A DNA stretch of 64,000 nt from Escherichia coli (lineage in GTDB: Bacteria > Pseudomonadota > Gammaproteobacteria > Enterobacterales > Enterobacteriaceae). The translations under genes and the position numbers were made by a program. Below the pieces are notes generated by a model, which worked only from the letters and a program-made list of their open reading frames with translations, had not been told where the DNA came from and ran no database searches. Shown piece after piece: positions 4,605-44,511 of the stretch (positions are counted from its first letter, which is position 1; every line of letters begins with the position of its first letter). Location: NCBI RefSeq assembly GCF_050920415.1, contig NZ_CP169309.1; one strand, 5' to 3'.

Positions 4605-5891
4605 TTACTGATGATTCATCATCAATTTACGCAACGCAGCAAAATCGGCGGGCAGATTATGCGAAAGCAAGGGTAAATCAGCACGTTCTGCCAGCTCTTT
4701 TGGCAGATCCAATGTTTCACCGAGAATCGCCTCCACGCTCTCTTTAAATTTCGCCGGATGCGCGGTGCCGAGGAACAGGCCATATTCGCCTGGATGCAAC
4801 TGGTCGCGCAGCGCACGATAAGCTACGGCAGCGTGCGGCTCCGAGGTATAGCCCAGCGCTTTTAACTCACGCATTGTCTGTTGCGTGGTTTCATCATCCA
4901 CGGCTGCATAGCCCAGCTCTTTCAGTTGCCAGATTTTGCGGCGGAATAACTCCTCCACACGCGGCCAGTTGTTCGGCTGACTCACGTCCATCGCATTGGA
5001 TAATGTCGCCTGAGTCGCTTTAGGGGACCACTGCCCGTCGTGCAAGAAACGCGGCACGGTATCGTTCACGTTAGTGGCAGCGATAAAACGCTTCACCGGC
5101 AGGCCAAGAGATTTCGCCAGCAGGCCCGCAGTCAAATCGCCGAAGTTACCGCTCGGCACCGAGACAACCAGCTGGTTGCGCGCTTCCTGCGGCAGCTGCG
5201 CAACAGCTTCAAAGTAGTAGCAAATCTGCGCCAGTAAACGACTGATGTTAATGGAGTTAGCAGAGTTCAGCCCCAAAGCCACTTTCAGTTCTTCATCATC
5301 AAACGCCTGCTTTACCAGCGCCTGACAGGCATCAAAATCGCCGTCAATGGCAATAGTTTCAATATTGCCACCCAACGTACAGAACAGTTTTTCTTGCAGT
5401 GGACTGATTTTGCCTCGTGGATAGAGGATAACCACTTTCACATTCGGTAAACCGTAGAAAGCATGAGCCACTGCCGCTCCAGTATCACCGGAGGTCGCGG
5501 TCAGAATGGTCACTGGCTTATCGCCCGCAATATGGGTCAGCATTTGTGCCATAAAGCGACCGCCGAAATCTTTAAATGCCAGCGTTGGCCCGTGAAACAA
5601 CTCCAGACAACCGACATCGCTTTCAACATTGGCGACCGGAGCCGGGAAGGCAAACGCCGCGCATACGCGCTCTTCCAGTATTTCCTGCGGGATTTCATCA
5701 CCAATAAACGCCGAGAGGATCTTCGCACTGCGGGTGACAAAATCCAGCTTCAGCATCTCATCAATTTCAGTCAGGCTGAATTCCGGTAGGTCGTGCGGAA
5801 AAAACAGCCCCTGATTTTTGCCCAACCCCTGAGTTACGGCTTGCGCAAAGCTGACCTGTTCGTTGTGATCTTTCAGATTGTAGAGTTTCAT
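4605..5891 (-). CDS. thrC: threonine synthase
   Basis: 428-aa ORF matching K-12 ThrC. Confidence 0.97.
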   Translation of the reverse strand: MKLYNLKDHNEQVSFAQAVTQGLGKNQGLFFPHDLPEFSLTEIDEMLKLDFVTRSAKILSAFIGDEIPQEILEERVCAAFAFPAPVANVESDVGCLELFHGPTLAFKDFGGRFMAQMLTHIAGDKPVTILTATSGDTGAAVAHAFYGLPNVKVVILYPRGKISPLQEKLFCTLGGNIETIAIDGDFDACQALVKQAFDDEELKVALGLNSANSINISRLLAQICYYFEAVAQLPQEARNQLVVSVPSGNFGDLTAGLLAKSLGLPVKRFIAATNVNDTVPRFLHDGQWSPKATQATLSNAMDVSQPNNWPRVEELFRRKIWQLKELGYAAVDDETTQQTMRELKALGYTSEPHAAVAYRALRDQLHPGEYGLFLGTAHPAKFKESVEAILGETLDLPKELAERADLPLLSHNLPADFAALRKLMMNHQ

Positions 5892-6824
5892 TTAGTTTTC
5901 CAGTACTCGTGCGCCCGCCGTATCCAGCCGGCAAATATGAACAAAACCTTCCTGATTTTGCAGGTAGTTCTTACCCAACCAGTCGGCAACGCGCTGGGCG
6001 GTATCCGGCTTGTCACACAGAGCGAACAAAGTCGGGCCGGAGCCGGAGATACCGCTCGCTACCGCGCCGATTTCCGCGACCGCCTGCCGCGCCTGCCGGA
6101 AGCCTGGCAGTAACCGTTCACGGTAGGGTTCAGCGATAACATCTTTCATCAGCTTCGCGGCAAGCTCAGGCTGACGGGAATAGCAGGCGTGAATGAAGCC
6201 TGCCAGATGTCGCCCGTGCGCAATGCAATCCTGGCGACGATACTGTGCCGGTAAAATAGCCCGGGCTTCTGCCGTCGAGACTTTAATCCCCGGATATGCC
6301 AGCACCCACAGCCACTCATCAAACCCCGGCACTTGCTGGCTGATGATGTCGTTTTCTTCGATCATCAACTGCATACCACCAAGAAAACACGGTGCCACGT
6401 TGTCGTAATGAATGCTGCCGGAGATACGCCCTTCCAGCTCGCCCATCAAAGCCAGCAAACGGGTGTCATTAAGCGGCTTGCCGCAATGTTCATTCATCGC
6501 CATCAGCGCCGCCACCACCGAACAAGCGCTGGAGCCTAAACCCGAACCGATCGGCATATTCTTTTCCAGCGTCATTGCCACTGGAATTTGCTTGCCCAGC
6601 TCCTGGCAAAAACGCTCCCAGCACTGATAAACGATATTTTCCCGTGGTTCTGACGGCAGCTTATCGGCAAAACGTCCGAGATTGTTGAGACTGAATGTCT
6701 CTGCCGCCTCAACCGTTACTACATCTCCGAGCAATGCACCATCAACAGGTGTCACCGCCGCCCCGAGCACATCAAACCCGACGCTCATATTGGCACTGGA
6801 AGCCGGGGCATAAACTTTAACCAT
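5892..6824 (-). CDS. thrB: homoserine kinase
   Basis: 310-aa ORF matching K-12 ThrB; directly follows thrA. Confidence 0.97.
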
Positions 6825-15755: not shown

Positions 15756-15965
15756 ATTGTTACCATTTTTATCTATGACATGAGCAATTAGTTCACCACG
15801 ATAAATAACATATTGATTAAGAACAAAATCTCAATACTTTTATTTCCGTCAAGACCTAAAACATACTCGACTAAGAAAAAAACACTGAATGCTAAAACAG
15901 CAAAAAATGCTATTATCCAATTACCTGATGTCAGGTGCTCGTTGTTGAAAGGATGAGGATATTTT

Positions 15966-20603: not shown

Positions 20604-22271
20604 GTGGCTCAATTCGTTTATACCATGCATCGTGTCGGCAAAGTTGTTCCGCCGAAACGTCATATTTTGAAAAACATCTCTCTGAGTTTCTTCCCTGGGG
20701 CAAAAATTGGTGTCCTGGGTCTGAACGGCGCGGGTAAGTCTACCCTGCTGCGCATTATGGCGGGCATTGATAAAGACATCGAAGGTGAAGCGCGTCCGCA
20801 ACCGGATATCAAGATTGGTTACCTGCCGCAGGAACCTCAGCTGAACCCGGAACACACCGTGCGTGAGTCCATTGAAGAAGCGGTTTCTGAAGTGGTTAAC
20901 GCTCTGAAACGTCTGGATGAAGTGTATGCGCTGTACGCCGATCCGGATGCCGATTTTGACAAGCTGGCCGCTGAACAAGGCCGTCTGGAAGAGATCATTC
21001 AGGCTCATGACGGTCATAACCTGAACGTTCAGCTGGAGCGTGCGGCTGATGCGCTGCGTCTGCCGGACTGGGACGCGAAAATCGCTAACCTTTCCGGTGG
21101 TGAGCGTCGTCGCGTGGCGTTGTGCCGCCTGCTGTTGGAAAAACCAGACATGCTGCTGCTCGACGAACCGACCAACCACCTGGATGCCGAATCCGTAGCG
21201 TGGCTGGAACGCTTCCTGCACGACTTCGAGGGCACCGTGGTGGCGATTACCCACGACCGTTACTTCCTCGATAACGTTGCAGGCTGGATCCTCGAACTTG
21301 ACCGCGGTGAAGGTATTCCGTGGGAAGGTAACTACTCCTCCTGGCTGGAGCAGAAAGATCAGCGTCTGGCGCAGGAAGCTTCACAAGAAGCAGCGCGTCG
21401 TAAGTCGATCGAGAAAGAGCTGGAGTGGGTACGTCAGGGAACTAAAGGCCGTCAGTCGAAAGGTAAAGCACGTCTGGCGCGCTTTGAAGAGCTGAACAGC
21501 ACCGAATATCAGAAACGTAACGAAACCAACGAACTGTTTATTCCGCCAGGACCGCGTCTGGGCGATAAAGTGCTGGAAGTCAGCAACCTGCGTAAATCTT
21601 ACGGCGATCGCCTGCTGATTGACTCCCTGAGCTTCTCGATCCCTAAAGGGGCGATCGTCGGGATCATCGGTCCGAACGGCGCGGGCAAATCAACACTGTT
21701 CCGTATGATCTCTGGTCAGGAACAACCAGACAGCGGCACCATCACTTTAGGTGAAACGGTGAAACTGGCATCTGTCGATCAGTTCCGTGACTCAATGGAT
21801 AACAGCAAAACCGTTTGGGAAGAAGTTTCCGGCGGGCTGGATATCATGAAGATCGGTAACACCGAGATGCCAAGCCGCGCCTACGTTGGCCGCTTCAACT
21901 TTAAAGGGGTTGATCAGGGTAAACGCGTTGGTGAACTCTCCGGTGGTGAGCGTGGTCGTCTGCATCTGGCGAAGCTGCTGCAGGTTGGCGGCAACATGCT
22001 GCTGCTCGACGAACCGACCAACGACCTGGATATCGAAACCCTGCGTGCGCTGGAAAACGCCCTGCTGGAGTTCCCGGGCTGCGCGATGGTTATCTCGCAC
22101 GACCGTTGGTTCCTCGACCGTATCGCCACACACATTCTGGATTACCAGGATGAAGGTAAAGTTGAGTTCTTTGAAGGTAACTTTACCGAGTACGAAGAGT
22201 ACAAGAAACGCACGCTGGGCGCAGACGCGCTGGAGCCGAAGCGTATCAAGTACAAGCGTATTGCGAAGTAA
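20604..22271 (+). CDS. ettA: ABC-F family energy-dependent translational throttle protein EttA
   Basis: 555-aa ORF with two ABC ATPase cassettes, matching K-12 EttA (YjjK). Confidence 0.95.
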   Translation: MAQFVYTMHRVGKVVPPKRHILKNISLSFFPGAKIGVLGLNGAGKSTLLRIMAGIDKDIEGEARPQPDIKIGYLPQEPQLNPEHTVRESIEEAVSEVVNALKRLDEVYALYADPDADFDKLAAEQGRLEEIIQAHDGHNLNVQLERAADALRLPDWDAKIANLSGGERRRVALCRLLLEKPDMLLLDEPTNHLDAESVAWLERFLHDFEGTVVAITHDRYFLDNVAGWILELDRGEGIPWEGNYSSWLEQKDQRLAQEASQEAARRKSIEKELEWVRQGTKGRQSKGKARLARFEELNSTEYQKRNETNELFIPPGPRLGDKVLEVSNLRKSYGDRLLIDSLSFSIPKGAIVGIIGPNGAGKSTLFRMISGQEQPDSGTITLGETVKLASVDQFRDSMDNSKTVWEEVSGGLDIMKIGNTEMPSRAYVGRFNFKGVDQGKRVGELSGGERGRLHLAKLLQVGGNMLLLDEPTNDLDIETLRALENALLEFPGCAMVISHDRWFLDRIATHILDYQDEGKVEFFEGNFTEYEEYKKRTLGADALEPKRIKYKRIAK

Positions 22272-39389: not shown

Positions 39390-40976
39390 TTAATGCTCGC
39401 GAGTCTGGTGGAACTGAACGTCCGGATAACGTTCCTGTGCCAGGCGCAGGTTGACCATGCTGGTAGCGATGTAAGCGAGGTTATCGCCGCCATCAAGCGC
39501 CAGTTGGCTTTCGTTCTTACGCTTGAACTCTTCGAATTTCTTCGCGTCCGCACATTCTACCCAGCGTGCAGTGGCAACGTTGACTGACTCATACACTGCT
39601 TCAACGTTGTATTCGCTCTTCAGGCGCGCTACCACCACATCAAACTGCAGCACACCAACCGCACCAACGATCAGGTCGTTGTTGGAGATCGGACGGAACA
39701 CCTGCACCGCGCCCTCTTCGGAAAGCTGTACCAGCCCTTTGAGCAGCTGTTTTTGCTTCAGCGGATCTTTCAGGCGGATACGACGGAACAGTTCCGGCGC
39801 AAAGTTCGGGATACCGGTGAACTTCATCATCTCACCCTGGGTAAAGGTGTCGCCGATCTGAATAGTGCCGTGGTTGTGCAGACCAAGGATGTCGCCCGGA
39901 TACGCTTCTTCAACATGCGAACGGTCGCCCGCCATAAAGGTCAGCGCGTCGGAGATCACCACATCTTTCGCGGTGCGCACCTGGCGCAGCTTCATACCTT
40001 TTTCATATTTACCAGATACCACACGCATAAACGCCACGCGGTCGCGGTGTTTCGGGTCCATGTTGGCCTGAATTTTAAATACGAAGCCGGTAAATTTATC
40101 TTCGCTCGCCTCTACGATACGGGTATCAGTCTGACGCGGCATCGGCGCAGGTGCCCACTCTACCAGGCCATCCAGCATATGATCGACGCCGAAGTTACCC
40201 AGCGCAGTACCAAAGAACACTGGAGTAATTTCGCCCGCAAGGAACAATTCTTTGTCGAACTCGTTAGACGCGCCTTTCACCAGTTCCAGTTCGTCACGCA
40301 GCTGCTGTGCCAGATCTTCACCAACCGCAGCATCGAGATCCGGGTTATTCAGCCCTTTAACAATACGGACTTCCTGAATGGTGTGACCTTTACCGCTCTG
40401 ATAGAGATAGGTTTCGTCTTTATAAAGGTGGTAAACGCCTTTAAACAGCTTGCCGCAGCCAATCGGCCAGGTGATCGGCGCACAGCCGATTTTCAGCTCG
40501 TTCTCAACTTCATCGAGCAGCTCCATCGGATCGCGGATATCACGGTCAAGTTTGTTCATAAAGGTGAGGATCGGCGTATCGCGCAGACGGGTAACTTCCA
40601 TCAGCTTACGGGTACGATCTTCAACACCTTTTGCGGCGTCGATAACCATCAGGCAGCAGTCCACCGCCGTCAGGGTACGATAGGTATCTTCCGAGAAGTC
40701 TTCGTGCCCGGGGGTGTCGAGCAGGTTAACCAGGCAGTCGTGATACGGAAACTGCATCACAGACGTGGTAATGGAGATCCCACGCTGCTTTTCCATCTCC
40801 ATCCAGTCCGACTTAGCGTGCTGGTTGGAACCACGGCCTTTTACTGTACCGGCAGTCTGAATGGCCTGTCCGAACAGCAGCACCTTCTCGGTGATGGTCG
40901 TTTTACCGGCGTCCGGGTGAGAAATAATTGCAAAGGTTCTTCTTTTCGCTACCTCTGCGGCCAAAAGGCTTGTCAT
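39390..40976 (-). CDS. prfC: peptide chain release factor 3, with a non-K-12 N-terminus
   Basis: 528 aa from the ATG at 40976 ([27 protein letters not shown]...); from residue 9 onward it matches K-12 RF3 as I recall it (K-12 begins MTLSPYLQEVAKRR). Confidence 0.93.
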
Positions 40977-41162
40977 AATTGTTGTCTCTTTGATTATGTA
41001 CAATCATATGTACAAAGAAAAATTCATGCCGCTGATTGTACATTTTGGAGGTATCAGAGCATAGCAGAACATGATCAGTAGGTGTATTTGTAGCCAAAGA
41101 ACATTTGTACATGCAGCAATCTTTACTCTATTGACACTGTTTATTCATACAGTAAAAAATAG

Positions 41163-41182
41163 TGCTGTATACAAATACAGTA
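41163..41182 (+). promoter_or_regulatory. LexA (SOS) box upstream of the dinI-like gene
   Basis: tgCTGTatacaaatACAGta matches the CTGT-N8-ACAG LexA consensus, 14 bp upstream of the dinI-like ATG. Confidence 0.75.
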
Positions 41183-41195
41183 TAGAGGGATTTTT

Positions 41196-41444
41196 ATGCG
41201 TATTGAGATCTGCATAGCCAAAGAGAAAATGACTAAAATGCCAAGCGGTGCTGTTGATGCGTTAAAGGAAGAATTAACTCGGCGCATCAGTAAGCGTTAT
41301 GACGATGTAGAAGTAATCGTAAAAGCCACCAGCAATGACGGGCTTTCTGTTACACGCACCGCAGATAAGGATTCTGCAAAAACATTTGTTCAGGAGACTC
41401 TGAAAGATACTTGGGAGTCTGCTGACGAGTGGTTTGTTCACTAA
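41196..41444 (+). CDS. DinI-family protein (prophage-encoded)
   Basis: 82-aa [14 protein letters not shown]...[15 protein letters not shown] resembling E. coli DinI in size and C-terminal motif; GAGGGA ribosome-binding site. Confidence 0.85.
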
Positions 41445-41694
41445 TAGACACGTAAAATCGGTAACGGCTGGAAATAATTCAATACTCGCACTATCGGAAG
41501 TTCACCAGCCAGCCGCAGCACGTTCTTGCATACGACGTGCCTGCGGTTTCAACTCCCGCCAGCTCCACCACTTTTGATAGGACTGCAACCGGACAGCGGC
41601 AATAAAAACAGCCACTTACGGACACTGACCAGACAGTAAGCGGACTTAAAAAAGACAAAAATATACACGCAAAATGCACGTGCATTTCAAAAAA

Positions 41695-41728
41695 GCCTCT
41701 GATTGTGAAGTCAGAGGCTTTTCTATTT
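41695..41728 (+). terminator. intrinsic terminator on the plus strand
   Basis: gcctctga-ttgtgaag-tcagaggc hairpin followed by ttttctattt. Confidence 0.6.
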
Positions 41729-41768: not shown

Positions 41769-42341
41769 TTACGTCACGTCAAACGCTCTGATTGAACGCA
41801 AATCATCCAGATTATTCAGTTGTTCCTTCATCTCGCGCTGGCGTTCGTGGATTTTAAAGCCCTCCGCCACCATGGCCACCATCATGGCATCGTTCAGCGC
41901 AATAAGTTTCTCCCTGGTCAGTATGACGTTGTTATTATCCGCATCAGTCCAGAAAAAACCATCCGGAAGCAGCCCGGCCTGCGCTGTTGCAACCACGGGC
42001 GCAAGGCGTGACTGCGAGGTTTTTCCGCCATCAAAACGACGGCCATCAAACGTGAAAATAAACTCAACGTTTTCCTGACTGTCGCGCCATGCCTCAATTT
42101 CCCGCCTTTTGGCATCCTTTGCCGCTGCAATAAGTTCCGGCGTGACGGTGAACGGGGCGATTTCGCCCCATTTCCCGCTTTGCAGCTCCTGCCAGACATG
42201 CTGGCCTGTCGGGGCCATATCATCCTGTATGGCGGTATACAGGACGAACTCCGTTTCACCTTCAAATAACACCTCGCAGTCAACCGCACCATTTTCAAGA
42301 TAATGCGCGTTTCTGATGCCTTTCACCGCTCTGATTTTCAT
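41769..42341 (-). CDS. putative tail fibre assembly / chaperone protein
   Basis: 190-aa ORF immediately downstream of the side tail fibre gene, the position occupied by tfa in lambda; assignment is by position and size, sequence is not lambda Tfa-like. Confidence 0.55.
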   Translation of the reverse strand: MKIRAVKGIRNAHYLENGAVDCEVLFEGETEFVLYTAIQDDMAPTGQHVWQELQSGKWGEIAPFTVTPELIAAAKDAKRREIEAWRDSQENVEFIFTFDGRRFDGGKTSQSRLAPVVATAQAGLLPDGFFWTDADNNNVILTREKLIALNDAMMVAMVAEGFKIHERQREMKEQLNNLDDLRSIRAFDVT

Positions 42342-42355
42342 GTCTTATTTCCTTA

Positions 42356-44446
42356 TTACTCAATGCGTACAAAAAGACCGATATAGCCACGCGTTGTATC
42401 GTGACTAATGCGGGTCCCCGAAAGCGCCGTGTAACGACCGGGGAAGTTGTATTCACCAGCACCGCCAATCACAACCTGCGGTGAGGATGCGTATGTCCCT
42501 GTATCGCTAACCCGTGCACTCATAGCCAGAGGGCCAAGACGGGAACCCGGCACAATATCACCGAGCCCCAGAGACGCATCTGCACCAAAACTCTCCCCCT
42601 GATATGCCGCCATAATCGGCACACCAACGGCCGGGTATTTATAATATGAGCCTGAGCCCGCCATCCTGGACAGCAGGTACGCCAGTGAATCTCCGTCGTA
42701 TACAACTACCCGCGATGACATGTTCCAGCTGTTATCGCTGTCGTTGTACCGGTACTGCATATAGTGAATACAGTGTTCACCCTGATAATACTGGTTGTAG
42801 CACATCAGGGTTTTAAATTTGCGGACTGTGTCGGATTCACTGTTGGCGTACGGTGACCACATCACATCAATAATGCCGTTAAATTGCGTGGTACCGGTAA
42901 GCAGTTGCGAGGAGTCTGTAATACTGACCGCATACCGCCCCGGCGTGACTTTCTTCAACCACTCAACGAAATCAGACAGCCCCTCAAACGCCAGAGCGTC
43001 AGTGCTGGTGAATGCCTGTCCAAACCCATACATCCCGGACAGGGCCAGCCTGCCCGGTGTGCGGTCACGGATATCACTCTGGGGTTCCATCGTCGCAGCC
43101 GCGTTCAGCTCAAGCTCCGTGCGCATGGCTTCAGCCGTGTCATGCGCCAGTAATGCGCGGCCCTTCTCTGACAGCAGAGACAGTGAGGCATTCCCGTCTG
43201 TATTGAAGTACAGAAGATTATCTGCCCGTTGCGTCAGTGCGCTGATTGCCGTTAAGACGTCATTAAGCGGTTGTTTGCCTGCCAGCGCGTTTGTGATTGT
43301 CGTCGCAAAGTTCGGGTCATTGCCCAGCGCCGCAGCCAGTTCGTTCAGGGTGTCCAGAACTTCCGGTGACGAATCAACCAGCGCAGCAAGCAGTTTGCGC
43401 ACAAACGCCGCGTTCGCTGCTTCCAGACCGGCGGCATCATCCTGTGGGGTTGGGGTGGTTGGGGTGCCGGTGAAGGCCGGGCTGTCCAGTGGCGCTTTTG
43501 TTTTCGTCTCCTCCATGACGGTTTTGACAGCCTTTGGCGTGGCAGCCAGTTCCTCGCTGTCGTTATCCGTGTCACTACAGAGTTGCACCAGACCTTTTTC
43601 TGTCGTGGAGGCATTTGTTGCATTCAGGTCATCAACTATCTGCTGCGTCTCATCCCTGTACTGTTTCGCTTCCTGCGCATTGTCTGCACCTGCATCCTGG
43701 CTGGCTTTAGCCTGTCGGGCGTATTCGGCGGCACTGTTTTTGTGCCCCAGCGCCGCATTTGCCGACAGTTCTGAACTGGTCGCTGCTGATGATGCGGCAT
43801 TATGATAAAGGCGGGCGCGTTCGGCGGCATCGACTGATTCGTCCCGCGCTGTGCCTGATGACTGTGCGCTGTTTTCTGCCTCACCCGCAAAACGTTCCGC
43901 ATCATCACGGGCCGTTGCGGTTGTCGTCACATCCTGTGCCGTCTGCTGTGCGTTTCCGGCTGCAGCTTCGGCGCTCTGCTGTGTCTGATTTTTTAGCTCT
44001 TCTGCCTCATCCTTACTAACCGCCGCAGATGTTGCTGCATTGATTGCATCATCAGCAGCTGTTTCTGCTCTCTCCCTGTCACTGACCACCTGCTCAGACA
44101 AGCGAACAACGGTATTTACCATTTCCTCAAAACGCTTCATTACCTCAGGGCGTAAATCACCCTCCTTTGGTGCATCCAGAAAAGCATTCAGCGTATCCGG
44201 CTCATCTGTCGGTGCAACATAAATTTCCCCCGCCTTTACAGGAGGATGCCCTGAGCGGGACAAAAATACATCATAAAATCCCGGCTCAGCATTAATAGTA
44301 TACCCGCCATCACTTCCCGTAAGACAGGTTGCCACAATATTAACCACAACTGTCGGACTGGTTCTTCTGGCTCGCAATTCAATCGCACAGTTTACGACAG
44401 GCTCACCTGCTCCGTCCTTCAGGACACCTGAAATCTTTACTGCCAT
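42356..44446 (-). CDS. stf: side tail fibre protein (Stf-like)
   Basis: ATG at 44446 gives MAVKISGVLKDGAGEPV..., the conserved N-terminus of lambdoid side tail fibres; long Ala/Ser/Thr/Gln-rich shaft; about 696 aa. Confidence 0.85.
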   Translation of the reverse strand: MAVKISGVLKDGAGEPVVNCAIELRARRTSPTVVVNIVATCLTGSDGGYTINAEPGFYDVFLSRSGHPPVKAGEIYVAPTDEPDTLNAFLDAPKEGDLRPEVMKRFEEMVNTVVRLSEQVVSDRERAETAADDAINAATSAAVSKDEAEELKNQTQQSAEAAAGNAQQTAQDVTTTATARDDAERFAGEAENSAQSSGTARDESVDAAERARLYHNAASSAATSSELSANAALGHKNSAAEYARQAKASQDAGADNAQEAKQYRDETQQIVDDLNATNASTTEKGLVQLCSDTDNDSEELAATPKAVKTVMEETKTKAPLDSPAFTGTPTTPTPQDDAAGLEAANAAFVRKLLAALVDSSPEVLDTLNELAAALGNDPNFATTITNALAGKQPLNDVLTAISALTQRADNLLYFNTDGNASLSLLSEKGRALLAHDTAEAMRTELELNAAATMEPQSDIRDRTPGRLALSGMYGFGQAFTSTDALAFEGLSDFVEWLKKVTPGRYAVSITDSSQLLTGTTQFNGIIDVMWSPYANSESDTVRKFKTLMCYNQYYQGEHCIHYMQYRYNDSDNSWNMSSRVVVYDGDSLAYLLSRMAGSGSYYKYPAVGVPIMAAYQGESFGADASLGLGDIVPGSRLGPLAMSARVSDTGTYASSPQVVIGGAGEYNFPGRYTALSGTRISHDTTRGYIGLFVRIE

Positions 44447-44511
44447 ATTCACCCCACAAAAAAGCCCGCCTGAACCCGGCGGGCTGTCATAACACTGTGT
44501 TACCTGGCTAA

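Follow-up and report, generated by a model that had tools for sequence, protein, structure and literature searches.

The DNA analysed here, called the window below, is a stretch of 64,000 nucleotides from Escherichia coli, and the locus of interest lies at the end of an integrated element. This element is a lambda-like (lambdoid) prophage integrated in prfC. In a three-way alignment of the window, K-12 prfC and phage cdtI, the sequence is phage-like up to a 14-mer at 40915..40928 and K-12-like after it; this 14-mer, which reads GGGTGAGAAATAAT on the plus strand and ATTATTTCTCACCC in prfC sense, is the attR core. Next to it, codons 1-16 of prfC are replaced by phage sequence on the minus strand (40929..40976; the equivalent stretch in cdtI is annotated as orf31), and the replacement prfC promoter region is found further upstream, within 40977-41130. 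In strain GB089, the displaced original 5' fragment of prfC is retained at the other prophage end. A P' arm (40997..41111) carries four TTGTACA heptamers, two on the minus strand (40997-41003 and 41009-41015) and two on the plus strand (41036-41042 and 41105-41111). Four of the five TTGTACA occurrences in the 64-kb window fall within these 115 bp, and they are probably binding sites of the recombinase or of an accessory protein.

The dinI-like gene and its flanking control elements, which we refer to as the cassette, are located about 200 bp inside the attR end. The cassette points away from prfC and is convergent with a tail-fibre assembly gene (41769-42341) and a tail-fibre gene (42356-44452), both on the minus strand. 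The original prediction had placed the gene at a prophage end and on the strand opposite to the structural genes, and both statements are correct. The immunity region of the prophage falls outside the window. A mosaic relative in strain GB089, which has the same dinI-prfC junction, encodes the S24 LexA-family repressor YmfK; the two prophages are only partly alike.

The coding sequence itself (41196..41444, plus strand, ATG start) encodes a protein of 82 aa, and its earlier description as an ORF of the DinI family is borne out by Pfam, PHROG, PDB and BLASTP matches. The protein matches the Pfam DinI profile PF06183 over positions 1-63 of 63 (70.5 bits against a cut-off of 24.2, E = 1.5e-19) as well as PHROG 189, "RecA filament binding protein DinI" (E = 6e-31), and its residues 1-81 align to residues 1-79 of the solved DinI structures 1GHH/7YWA (E = 3e-13). 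The alignment with E. coli DinI that had been suggested as a check runs end to end with 1GHH and gives 46% identity to the K-12 protein. Six of the C-terminal 25 residues are acidic, and the motif TWESAD-WFV is identical to that of DinI, in which the negatively charged C-terminal helix is the RecA-contacting surface. In the NCBIfam DinI equivalog model NF007893, the protein reaches 73.2 bits and stays under the 111-bit cut-off; RefSeq names it "DinI-like family protein". By these comparisons the protein is classified as a DinI-family paralogue and not as an orthologue of chromosomal dinI. With 46% identity to DinI and a score under the equivalog cut-off, its binding to RecA is inferred. The coding sequence is under purifying selection: among 29 unique sequences, pN/pS is 0.024 at a pS of 0.15, with 2/1/28 segregating sites at the three codon positions, values drawn from the 80 loci best by protein identity, so that pN is biased downwards.

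Upstream of the gene, the promoter scan detected a sigma-70 promoter on the plus strand with 10 of 12 matches (TTGACA/18 nt/AAAAAT). The -35 hexamer (41131..41136), a perfect TTGACA, is at the same time the left edge of the portable cassette, and the -10 hexamer AAAAAT (41155..41160) follows after an 18-nt spacer. An identical promoter is annotated independently in the record of phage mEp460. The -10 of the window copy is weak; most other copies carry TAAAAA at 17 nt or AAAAAT at 18 nt. Two predicted LexA operators, both on the plus strand, bracket the -10 hexamer. Operator 1 (CACTGTTTATTCATACAGTA, 41135..41154, core 41137-41152) is an exact CTGT-N8-ACAG match that fills the spacer between -35 and -10, while operator 2 (TGCTGTATACAAATACAGTA, 41163..41182, core 41165-41180) lies over the predicted transcription start, its core beginning 4 nt past the -10. 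The spacing of 28 bp from centre to centre shows no obvious helical phasing for cooperativity. A ribosome-binding site, AGAGGG (41184..41189, plus strand), is positioned 6 nt before the ATG and is conserved among copies.

The consensus SOS box reported in the original prediction is indeed found at 41165-41180, where CTGTATACAAATACAG represents a near-consensus LexA box; its distance to the ATG had been given as 14 bp and has to be corrected to 15 nt from the 16-mer core (13 nt after the 20-mer). The accompanying claim that the gene has its own LexA control region stands as far as sequence can tell, and the region is stronger than described, with two operators instead of one. The span assigned at that time, 41163-41444, was too short: it omits the second box (41137-41152), the promoter (41131-41160) and the 3'UTR with its terminator (41445-41551).

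Both operators were scored by the heterology index (HI), where lower values are closer to the LexA consensus. The matrix is based on a set of 29 E. coli LexA sites; absolute HI values are approximate, the ranking is robust. The best site is 41135-41154 with an HI of 3.6, followed by 41163-41182, the site originally put forward for such scoring, with 4.0-4.6; these are the top two of 127,962 positions. The next-best site in the window has an HI of 8.4, and the sites of recA, sulA and K-12 dinI range from 3.4 to 4.5 on the same matrix. Exact CTGT-N8-ACAG matches occur four times in the 64-kb window against 0.6 expected, a count that no shuffle reached, and two of them fall within 44 bp at the dinI-like promoter. 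The other two (43198, inside the tail-fibre ORF, and 51862) are located in the structural-gene region and outside the best 15 PWM sites, and we regard them as chance matches. LexA control of prfC was considered as well and rejected, since the prfC start is over 150 bp away from the boxes, which lie upstream of it and beyond the divergent dinI -35.

The operators are strongly conserved. Both strict boxes are present in 59 out of 60 cassette copies, the remaining copy having CTGG in box 1. Among 35 unique cassettes, CTGT and ACAG of box 2 are invariant, as is ACAG of box 1, where a single CTGG was seen; all further variation within the boxes is confined to positions outside these cores. Even among divergent phage dinI genes (37-70% identity), six out of seven carry a LexA box with an HI of 0.9-7.8 that ends 13-19 nt before the ATG. 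With low-HI operators that overlap the promoter and are conserved among homologues, the dinI-like gene has the sequence hallmarks of a member of the LexA regulon.

On the other side of the gene, the stop codon is followed by a 3'UTR of about 107 nt, whereas in K-12 dinI the terminator follows after about 10 nt. Its conserved 5' part (41451..41511, plus strand) has the layout GTAAAATC...GGCTGG...CCAGCC, and a terminator hairpin of -20 kcal/mol (41511..41551, plus strand) forms the right edge of the cassette. The stem of this hairpin is maintained by compensatory changes among copies. In the window copy just TTT follows the stem, where other copies have TTTTTCTTTTT, and the terminator scan made no call on it. 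Further downstream, a strong two-way terminator (41691..41722) has a 14-bp stem flanked by T runs on either side; it also serves the convergent tail-fibre assembly gene and likely stops read-through from dinI. The sole plus-strand ORF in this region (41434-41577, TTG start, 47 aa) matched no family, PHROGs included, and most copies close it by TAA at codon 5, TAATTAAC replacing TAATAGAC.

Promoter, two operators, ribosome-binding site, dinI, conserved 3'UTR and terminator hairpin together make up a portable cassette of about 420 bp (41131-41551). Homology among the 60 copies begins at the -35 and stops after the hairpin, and the copies have five different contexts on their upstream side and up to about 23 on their downstream side. 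The cassette travels as a block between phage contexts. Having its own promoter and terminator, lying between unrelated phage genes and showing homology breaks at its edges, it corresponds in sequence to a moron. In 52 of the 60 copies it is situated directly downstream of an integrase gene and co-oriented with it; the window cassette instead diverges from the att site. Two rare variants distinguish the window copy, namely the A at 41154 and the terminator without a U-tract. Part of the 831-bp query matches about half of the complete E. coli genomes, at up to seven places per genome.

The same cassette is present in phages cdtI, mEp460, 2H10 and PhiR63_1 and in many Stx phages (Stx1a/Stx2a/Stx2c), where the gene is usually annotated as DinI. 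The proteins cdtI orf30 (YP_001272543), mEp460_021 ("DinI-like protein"), VT1-Sakai H0001 and that of 2H10 are 95-99% identical to the window protein, and these copies share promoter, operators and 3'UTR with the window cassette. In cdtI, the cassette is likewise placed beside a prfC-type attP and the integrase. LexA operators are unannotated in the phage records inspected.

LexA-regulated dinI genes of prophages have been published for Gifsy-1, -2 and -3 (PMC3121763, PMC8072944), where dinI, an antirepressor gene and irsA form a LexA-controlled operon (Lemire et al. 2011, PMC3121763). Nalidixic acid raises the expression of these dinI homologues 4.6- to 23-fold (PMC8072944), and mitomycin C treatment leads to their accumulation (PMC3121763). 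Besides Gifsy, the dinI gene of Klebsiella is the one other precedent for LexA-dependent derepression of this kind. The window gene resembles the Gifsy genes in coding for a prophage-borne DinI paralogue, in its sigma-70 promoter and in a strong LexA box that closely precedes the ATG. It differs in its protein sequence (42% identity), in having two boxes instead of one, in its position at the att end instead of after the replication genes, and in the absence of antirepressor and irsA downstream. With chromosomal dinI (b1061), the gene shares the full-length fold family, the C-terminal TWESAD(D/E)WFV and the organisation as a single LexA-repressed gene that ends in a terminator of its own; unlike b1061, it is a mobile paralogue and has a second operator. 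Other LexA-controlled phage genes with a DinI-like domain are tum of coliphage 186 and the split tum of PSP3/Fels-2 (PMC3121763). Tum comprises 146 aa including an N-terminal antirepressor half, whereas the window protein corresponds to the DinI half only: it matches just positions 71-149 of 151 of PHROG 189 and has no Tum-like N-terminal half. The arrangement at the locus is real, yet common and of an already known kind, and the finding alone matters little.

Our preferred reading, which we hold to be quite probable, is a self-contained LexA-repressed dinI moron at the attR end of a lambdoid prophage in prfC. As long as the lysogen is undamaged, both operators would be occupied by LexA dimers and the promoter kept shut, independently of the phage repressor. 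Upon DNA damage, RecA-stimulated cleavage of LexA would open it. With two operators of apparently recA- or sulA-like strength, a deep depletion of LexA should be needed, and expression is expected at a middle to late stage of SOS. The protein would then bind RecA filaments as E. coli DinI does, via its acidic C-terminal helix, in which TWESADEWF is conserved. At a moderate level, the filament would be stabilised and UmuD cleavage, and with it polymerase V mutagenesis, held back, while the cleavage of LexA and CI-type repressors would continue. At a high dose, as from several prophage copies or a replicating prophage, the co-protease activity of RecA would be damped generally. For DinI itself, filament stabilisation, UmuD-selective inhibition and inhibition at excess were reportedly described by Yasuda (1998 and 2001), Voloshin (2001) and Lusetti (2004), works cited in PMC3121763. 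The original prediction also suggested that the gene possibly tunes RecA-dependent repressor cleavage; this part of it gained no support. The idea is not new, since the LexA-regulated dinI genes of Gifsy and a similar speculation on dinI in Stx2a phages (PMC8456039) have already been published, and the Gifsy deletions, in which induction did not change significantly when dinI was lost (PMC3121763), speak against an effect.

The same gene under the same LexA control may also act as a brake. An extra dose of DinI would then stop the RecA co-protease, limit the induction of its own or of co-resident prophages and end the SOS response. Such an effect could be a benefit to the lysogen, or an edge for one prophage over its rivals. 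The dose would fit this reading, given up to seven query matches per genome and a further increase from a replicating prophage, and two strong operators predict a late burst. The reported biochemistry points both ways: over-produced DinI is said to inhibit cleavage of LexA and UmuD (Yasuda in 1998), whereas stoichiometric DinI reportedly stabilises filaments and spares LexA cleavage (Lusetti in 2004). The sequence gives no hint of the direction of the effect. The literature on Stx2a phages takes the same view as the brake reading (PMC8456039), but non-polar deletions of the Gifsy dinI genes had no significant effect on induction (PMC3121763). We regard a brake as a tentative possibility, somewhat on the unlikely side.

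Another explanation shifts the emphasis from the protein to the RNA. The 3'UTR (41451-41551) would be set free, as an sRNA of the Hfq type, from the dinI mRNA that the SOS response induces, and would be a major product of the unit or even the main one. A precedent exists in Klebsiella pneumoniae, where the sRNA DinR derives from dinI (Ruhland et al. 2024, PMC10907235); as far as the arrangement is concerned, that gene is likewise LexA-controlled and has an extra stretch before its Rho-independent terminator. In the cassette, the length of the 3'UTR and its conservation speak for such a role: nucleotide diversity in 41451..41511 is 0.040 against 0.089 at codon position 3, and over the first 61 nt diversity is 2-4 times lower than at synonymous sites of the same cassettes. 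The whole 3'UTR folds as two hairpins with a z-score of -2.7, and other copies provide a proper U-tail. Copies of the element are also found where dinI is missing: lambda has one between ea31 and ea47, the K-12 prophage Qin has one at its end, and both begin at the same GTAAAATC boundary.

Several observations argue against an RNA-centred unit. The window copy is devoid of the U-tail needed by Hfq sRNAs, and the divergent cassettes of PhiR12_5 and BP-4795 do without the element despite having the same promoter. A search of the plus strand in and after the cassette matched no Rfam family; the sole Rfam match is a sub-threshold, hairpin-driven hit to CssrB on the minus strand (25.7 bits against a gathering score of 76), and nothing relevant was found in the literature on CssrB. 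Covariation was not seen in the first stem of the 3'UTR, as the sequences are too similar. Complementarity of at least 12 nt to the 3'UTR is absent from the window and from the GB089 prophage. In contrast to DinR, the element shows no complementarity to ftsZ beyond that of random sequences: the duplex with the ftsZ start has an energy of -35.9 compared with a shuffle mean of -35.2, and 41% of the shuffles equal it, which led us to reject DinR-style targeting. In nearly all E. coli, the ecpE-ykgJ interval holds the element beside a dead 3' remnant of dinI. There, no extra constraint on the element is seen, with 87% identity compared with 83% for the adjacent dead coding sequence. The ykgJ neighbourhood of some prophages had raised the idea that the element is an att site, which was rejected: flanking sequences vary over about 23 contexts, and the chromosomal copy, with its dinI remnant, is a relic. 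A literature search for an sRNA near ykgJ led to EcsR2 alone, which lies on the other side of ykgJ and is not relevant. On balance, we consider it improbable that an sRNA is a major or the main product of the unit. It is equally doubtful that the roughly 100 nt after dinI (41451-41551) form an RNA module with a function of its own in lambdoid phages, which could take the form of an SOS-inducible 3'-end-derived sRNA or of a structured element reused as terminator or recombination linker. Nevertheless, the separable 3'UTR element is the only part of the locus that could yield something new.

It is very unlikely that the cassette is an inert passenger, i.e., a decaying, functionless remnant carried along beside the attachment site. 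Decayed versions do exist, such as the dinI remnant between ecpE and ykgJ and the 3'UTR-only remnants in lambda and Qin. In the window, however, the ORF is intact and belongs to a family under purifying selection, the operator cores are invariant, and the cassette as a whole is kept in five upstream and many downstream contexts. Least credible of all, with hardly any chance of being right, is a Gifsy-type switch in which dinI would be the first gene of a LexA-controlled operon delivering a small antirepressor against the prophage repressor: co-oriented ORFs do follow dinI in Gifsy-2, PHB10 and Kp4882-1, as in the published Gifsy arrangement, but here the conserved cassette stops at the terminator hairpin about 107 nt past the stop codon, the 47-aa TTG ORF is neither conserved nor related to any PHROG, the gene that comes next, for tail-fibre assembly, is convergent, and the protein itself has no Tum-like antirepressor half.

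Under the preferred reading of a LexA-repressed moron, the SOS regulon of E. coli strains extends into their prophages by way of a portable dinI cassette that is very common. In the literature, what exactly DinI does is still described as elusive, and a strongly conserved mobile paralogue offers a natural handle on this question. Multi-prophage strains can hold several copies of the cassette, each with two strong LexA operators, and the dose of DinI after damage may differ much between strains. This could carry over to how RecA filaments behave, how UmuD is processed and perhaps when Stx phages are induced.

The gene at 41196-41444 (+ strand; 82 codons, ATG start, RBS AGAGGG six bases upstream) encodes a DinI-family protein, as had been proposed originally. 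The 82-aa product matches the Pfam family DinI (PF06183) across its full profile with 70.5 bits (cut-off 24.2) and PHROG 189, "RecA filament binding protein DinI", with E=6e-31. Residues 1 to 81 align practically end to end with solved E. coli DinI (1GHH; RecA complex 7YWA; E=3e-13), and the identity to K-12 DinI is 46%, the C-terminal motif TWESAD(D/E)WFV being retained. As the protein reaches 73 bits in the NCBI equivalog model for chromosomal dinI and thus stays below the cut-off of 111, we regard it as a DinI paralogue; RefSeq names it "DinI-like family protein".

The window contains four copies of the motif CTGT-N8-ACAG, with 0.6 expected, and none of 100 shuffles gave four. Two of the four sites are located just 5' of the dinI-like gene, 28 bp apart (41137-41152 and 41165-41180). 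Sites were ranked by the heterology index (HI), where lower values are nearer to the LexA consensus; the underlying matrix holds 29 E. coli LexA sites, and absolute HI values are approximate. On this matrix, the predicted operators box 1 (41135-41154, HI 3.6) and box 2 (41163-41182, HI 4.0-4.6) fall into the range of the recA, sulA and K-12 dinI sites and are the top two of 127,962 window positions, the third having an HI of 8.4. The SOS box postulated upstream of dinI is hence real, but the original prediction saw only box 2 and overlooked box 1. Its distance to the start codon, given there as 14 bp, is 15 nt when measured from the 16-mer core and 13 nt when measured from the 20-mer. The remaining exact matches, 43198 (within the tail-fibre ORF) and 51862, lie in the prophage structural-gene region and score poorly. 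The two LexA-like 20-mers that rank next in the window are probably chance or weak sites: CACTGAATGCTAAAACAGCA (15883-15902, HI 9.1) between two divergent ORFs, one of 289 and one of 157 aa, which we take to be rob and creA from their size and map order, and AACTGTTTATTCCGCCAGGA (21532-21551, HI 8.4) within a 555-aa ORF, on the same grounds presumably ettA.

A promoter scan placed a perfect -35 hexamer TTGACA at 41131-41136 and, after an 18-nt spacer, the -10 hexamer AAAAAT at 41155-41160 (both + strand). The identical promoter was annotated by the depositors of phage mEp460. Given these predicted positions, box 1 fills the -35/-10 spacer, while box 2 starts four bases past the -10 hexamer and covers the expected start site.

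To its left, the dinI-like gene is flanked by prfC (39390-40976, - strand). Aligned three ways with K-12 prfC and phage cdtI, the window equals the phage up to the 14-mer ATTATTTCTCACCC (40915-40928, within the prfC 5' end) and equals K-12 beyond it, which defines the att core about 200 bp from the dinI promoter. To the right follow a convergent DUF4376 tail-fibre assembly gene and the tail-fibre gene. The core, the phage/K-12 junction and the convergent tail genes together place the dinI-like gene at the attR end of a lambdoid prophage, in good agreement with the predicted location at a prophage end and on the strand opposite to the structural genes. Phage DNA replaces the first 16 codons of prfC plus its promoter and upstream region, and RF3 expression has therefore become dependent on phage DNA. 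Strain GB089 has the displaced 5' fragment of the original prfC at the opposite prophage end, beside yjjG. The 200 bp separating the att core from the dinI promoter harbour four of the window's five TTGTACA heptamers, two per strand, within 115 bp (40997-41111). Their total in the window is not above chance and only the clustering stands out; they are probably arm sites of attR for an integrase/recombinase or an accessory protein. The prophage immunity region lies outside the window. The GB089 prophage, a mosaic relative that has the same junction and only parts in common with the window prophage, carries an S24 LexA-family repressor, YmfK. At its end opposite to dinI, in a part outside the window, an "anti-phage dCTP deaminase" gene adjoins the integrase (4799-6394 of the fetched GB089 sequence, L090).

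The gene is part of a conserved and portable cassette of about 420 bp (41131-41551, + strand), which comprises promoter, both LexA operators, RBS, CDS, 3'UTR and a terminal hairpin. Of 5426 complete E. coli genomes, 2726 match an 831-bp stretch around the gene at least in part, in up to seven places per genome, and the cassette is carried by phages cdtI, 2H10, PhiR63_1 and mEp460 as well as many Stx1a, Stx2a and Stx2c phages. We compared the best 80 IMG/VR loci by protein identity together with annotated phages. The left limit of homology among the copies is exactly the -35 hexamer and the right limit lies just past the hairpin, about 107 nt 3' of the stop codon, with five different upstream sequences and up to about 23 downstream ones. 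An integrase gene directly precedes the cassette in 52 of 60 copies, the prfC-type arrangement of the window being a minority. Both strict boxes are present in 59 of the 60 (CTGG in box 1 of the remaining copy), and among 35 unique cassettes the boxes vary outside the CTGT and ACAG cores. Segregating sites in the CDS number 2, 1 and 28 at codon positions 1, 2 and 3, and pN/pS is 0.024 at a pS of 0.15, with pN lowered by the choice of loci as best by protein identity. The hairpin is kept by compensatory changes, e.g., CCGCAGCACGT/ACGTGCCTGCGG, CCGTGGCACGT/ACGTGCTACGG and GCGGTACGT/ATGTACCGC; some copies have a wholly different upper stem, and every version folds at -13 to -22 kcal/mol. The cassette brings its own promoter and terminator, has neighbours that vary between copies and carries an intact gene under selection, which together fit the definition of a moron.

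Upstream regions of seven phage dinI homologues with 37-70% identity were scored for LexA boxes as well. Six of them (PhiR12_5, BP-4795, Klebsiella P18-100, Klebsiella Kp4882-1, Gifsy-2 and PHB10) have a box with an HI of 0.9-7.8 that ends 13-19 nt 5' of the ATG, which makes LexA control a trait conserved among phage dinI genes. The exception is Yersinia YeP1, whose dinI lies closely behind another gene. Gifsy-2, Kp4882-1 and PHB10 have a single box, and the two-box layout is limited to the E. coli lambdoid cassette clade, i.e., the window and PhiR12_5, with a degraded form in BP-4795; judged from these sequences, the double operator belongs to this cassette in particular. Annotated co-oriented ORFs 3' of dinI occur in Gifsy-2 and PHB10. 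Compared with window 41131-41444, PhiR12_5 (190-548 of L092) has a near-identical two-box promoter and does not differ in the first 16 codons. Beyond codon 16 its dinI is about 60-70% identical, resembles BP-4795 and ends in a different short terminator, which points to a recombination joint within dinI.

As long as the lysogen is undamaged, LexA on both predicted operators would block the dinI promoter without involvement of the phage's own repressor; the cassette is located outside the immunity and late operons, in opposite orientation. DNA damage would open the promoter via RecA-stimulated LexA cleavage, and as two strong operators predict a need for deep LexA depletion, expression would fall into the middle to late response. 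The protein would then, by analogy to E. coli DinI, bind RecA filaments via its acidic C-terminal helix. According to Yasuda (1998/2001), Voloshin (2001) and Lusetti (2004), cited in PMC3121763, E. coli DinI at moderate levels reportedly stabilises filaments and selectively restrains UmuD cleavage, and a large excess is reported to inhibit co-protease activity generally. For the phage, the net outcome may be a longer-lasting inducing signal, fewer mutations in replicating phage DNA, or a brake on induction; that phage dinI limits Stx-phage induction is an idea already voiced (PMC8456039).

In Gifsy prophages, dinI is likewise prophage-borne with a LexA box and heads a LexA-controlled operon, followed by an induction-triggering antirepressor and irsA (PMC3121763). 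In contrast, the window cassette has neither gene: nothing comparable lies 3' of dinI, where the conserved unit stops at the terminator. The sole + strand ORF there (41434-41577; 47 aa from a TTG start) matches no family and, in most copies, is closed by a TAA at codon 5. A Tum-type fusion was dismissed, as the 82-aa protein matches no more of the PHROG profile than its DinI half. The LexA-boxed dinI genes of Gifsy-1, -2 and -3 are induced 4.6- to 23-fold by nalidixic acid (PMC8072944). Gifsy-2 DinI protein builds up after mitomycin C, and non-polar dinI deletions in Gifsy-1 and Gifsy-3 caused no significant change in induction (PMC3121763). Many phage records contain a dinI annotation; our literature search found no description or test of the E. 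coli cassette's two-operator promoter.

Several observations suggest the 3'UTR with its hairpin (41451-41551, + strand, here with intact dinI) as a unit of its own. The distance from stop codon to terminator is about 107 nt in the cassette versus about 10 nt in K-12 dinI. The first 61 nt of the 3'UTR (GTAAAATC...GGCTGG...CCAGCC) show a diversity 2-4 times lower than that of synonymous sites in the same cassettes (pi 0.040 vs 0.089 at position 3, pS 0.15), and of 200 shuffles, 198 fold less well than the complete 3'UTR. Copies without dinI occur in the lambda b region between ea31 and ea47 (1501-1595 of L086) and at the K-12 prophage Qin end (2501-2607 of L088), their starts lying no more than two bases from the same GTAAAATC boundary. 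A core-genome copy between ecpE and ykgJ, upstream of ykgJ, retains a decayed dinI 3' remnant (2436-2597 of L089). Of 5426 complete E. coli genomes, 5408 contain the element (median three copies, up to 11), and the ecpE-ykgJ copy with its dead remnant is likewise present in 5408. PhiR12_5 and BP-4795, with their near-identical and degraded two-box promoters, both do without it. Candidate roles of this stretch are an RNA element, a recombination linker and a terminator that recombination has reused; we consider an RNA module quite unlikely. Processing of the 3' end of Klebsiella dinI mRNA yields the Hfq-bound sRNA DinR, a repressor of ftsZ (PMC10907235). This analogy found no support for the cassette: the 3'UTR complementarity to ftsZ does not exceed that of shuffles, the search of Rfam yielded no family on the + strand, the element exhibits no covariation and no local target by complementarity (12 nt or more, in the window or the GB089 prophage), and in the chromosomal relic it is conserved no better than the adjoining dead CDS.

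In the window copy, the hairpin is followed by TTTCAAC (41549-41556; only TTT) versus TTTTTCTTTTT in many other copies, and the terminator scan made no call at this hairpin. The cassette terminator of this copy is probably leaky, with transcription ending at 41691-41722, where a strong two-way terminator (both strands) would catch the read-through. A weak Rfam match to CssrB lies on the - strand (41514-41687; 25.7 bits vs a gathering score of 76). Between the hairpin and the tail-fibre assembly gene's terminator we observe an unannotated 39-codon ORF (41549-41668, - strand; GTG start, ...RKWLFLLPLSGCSPIKSGGAGGS, lipobox-like LSGC) without a Pfam-like family match. Another version of the spacer (L025/L043 type) carries an ORF of the same length and about 40% identity, and read-through from dinI would run antisense to the ORF of the window.
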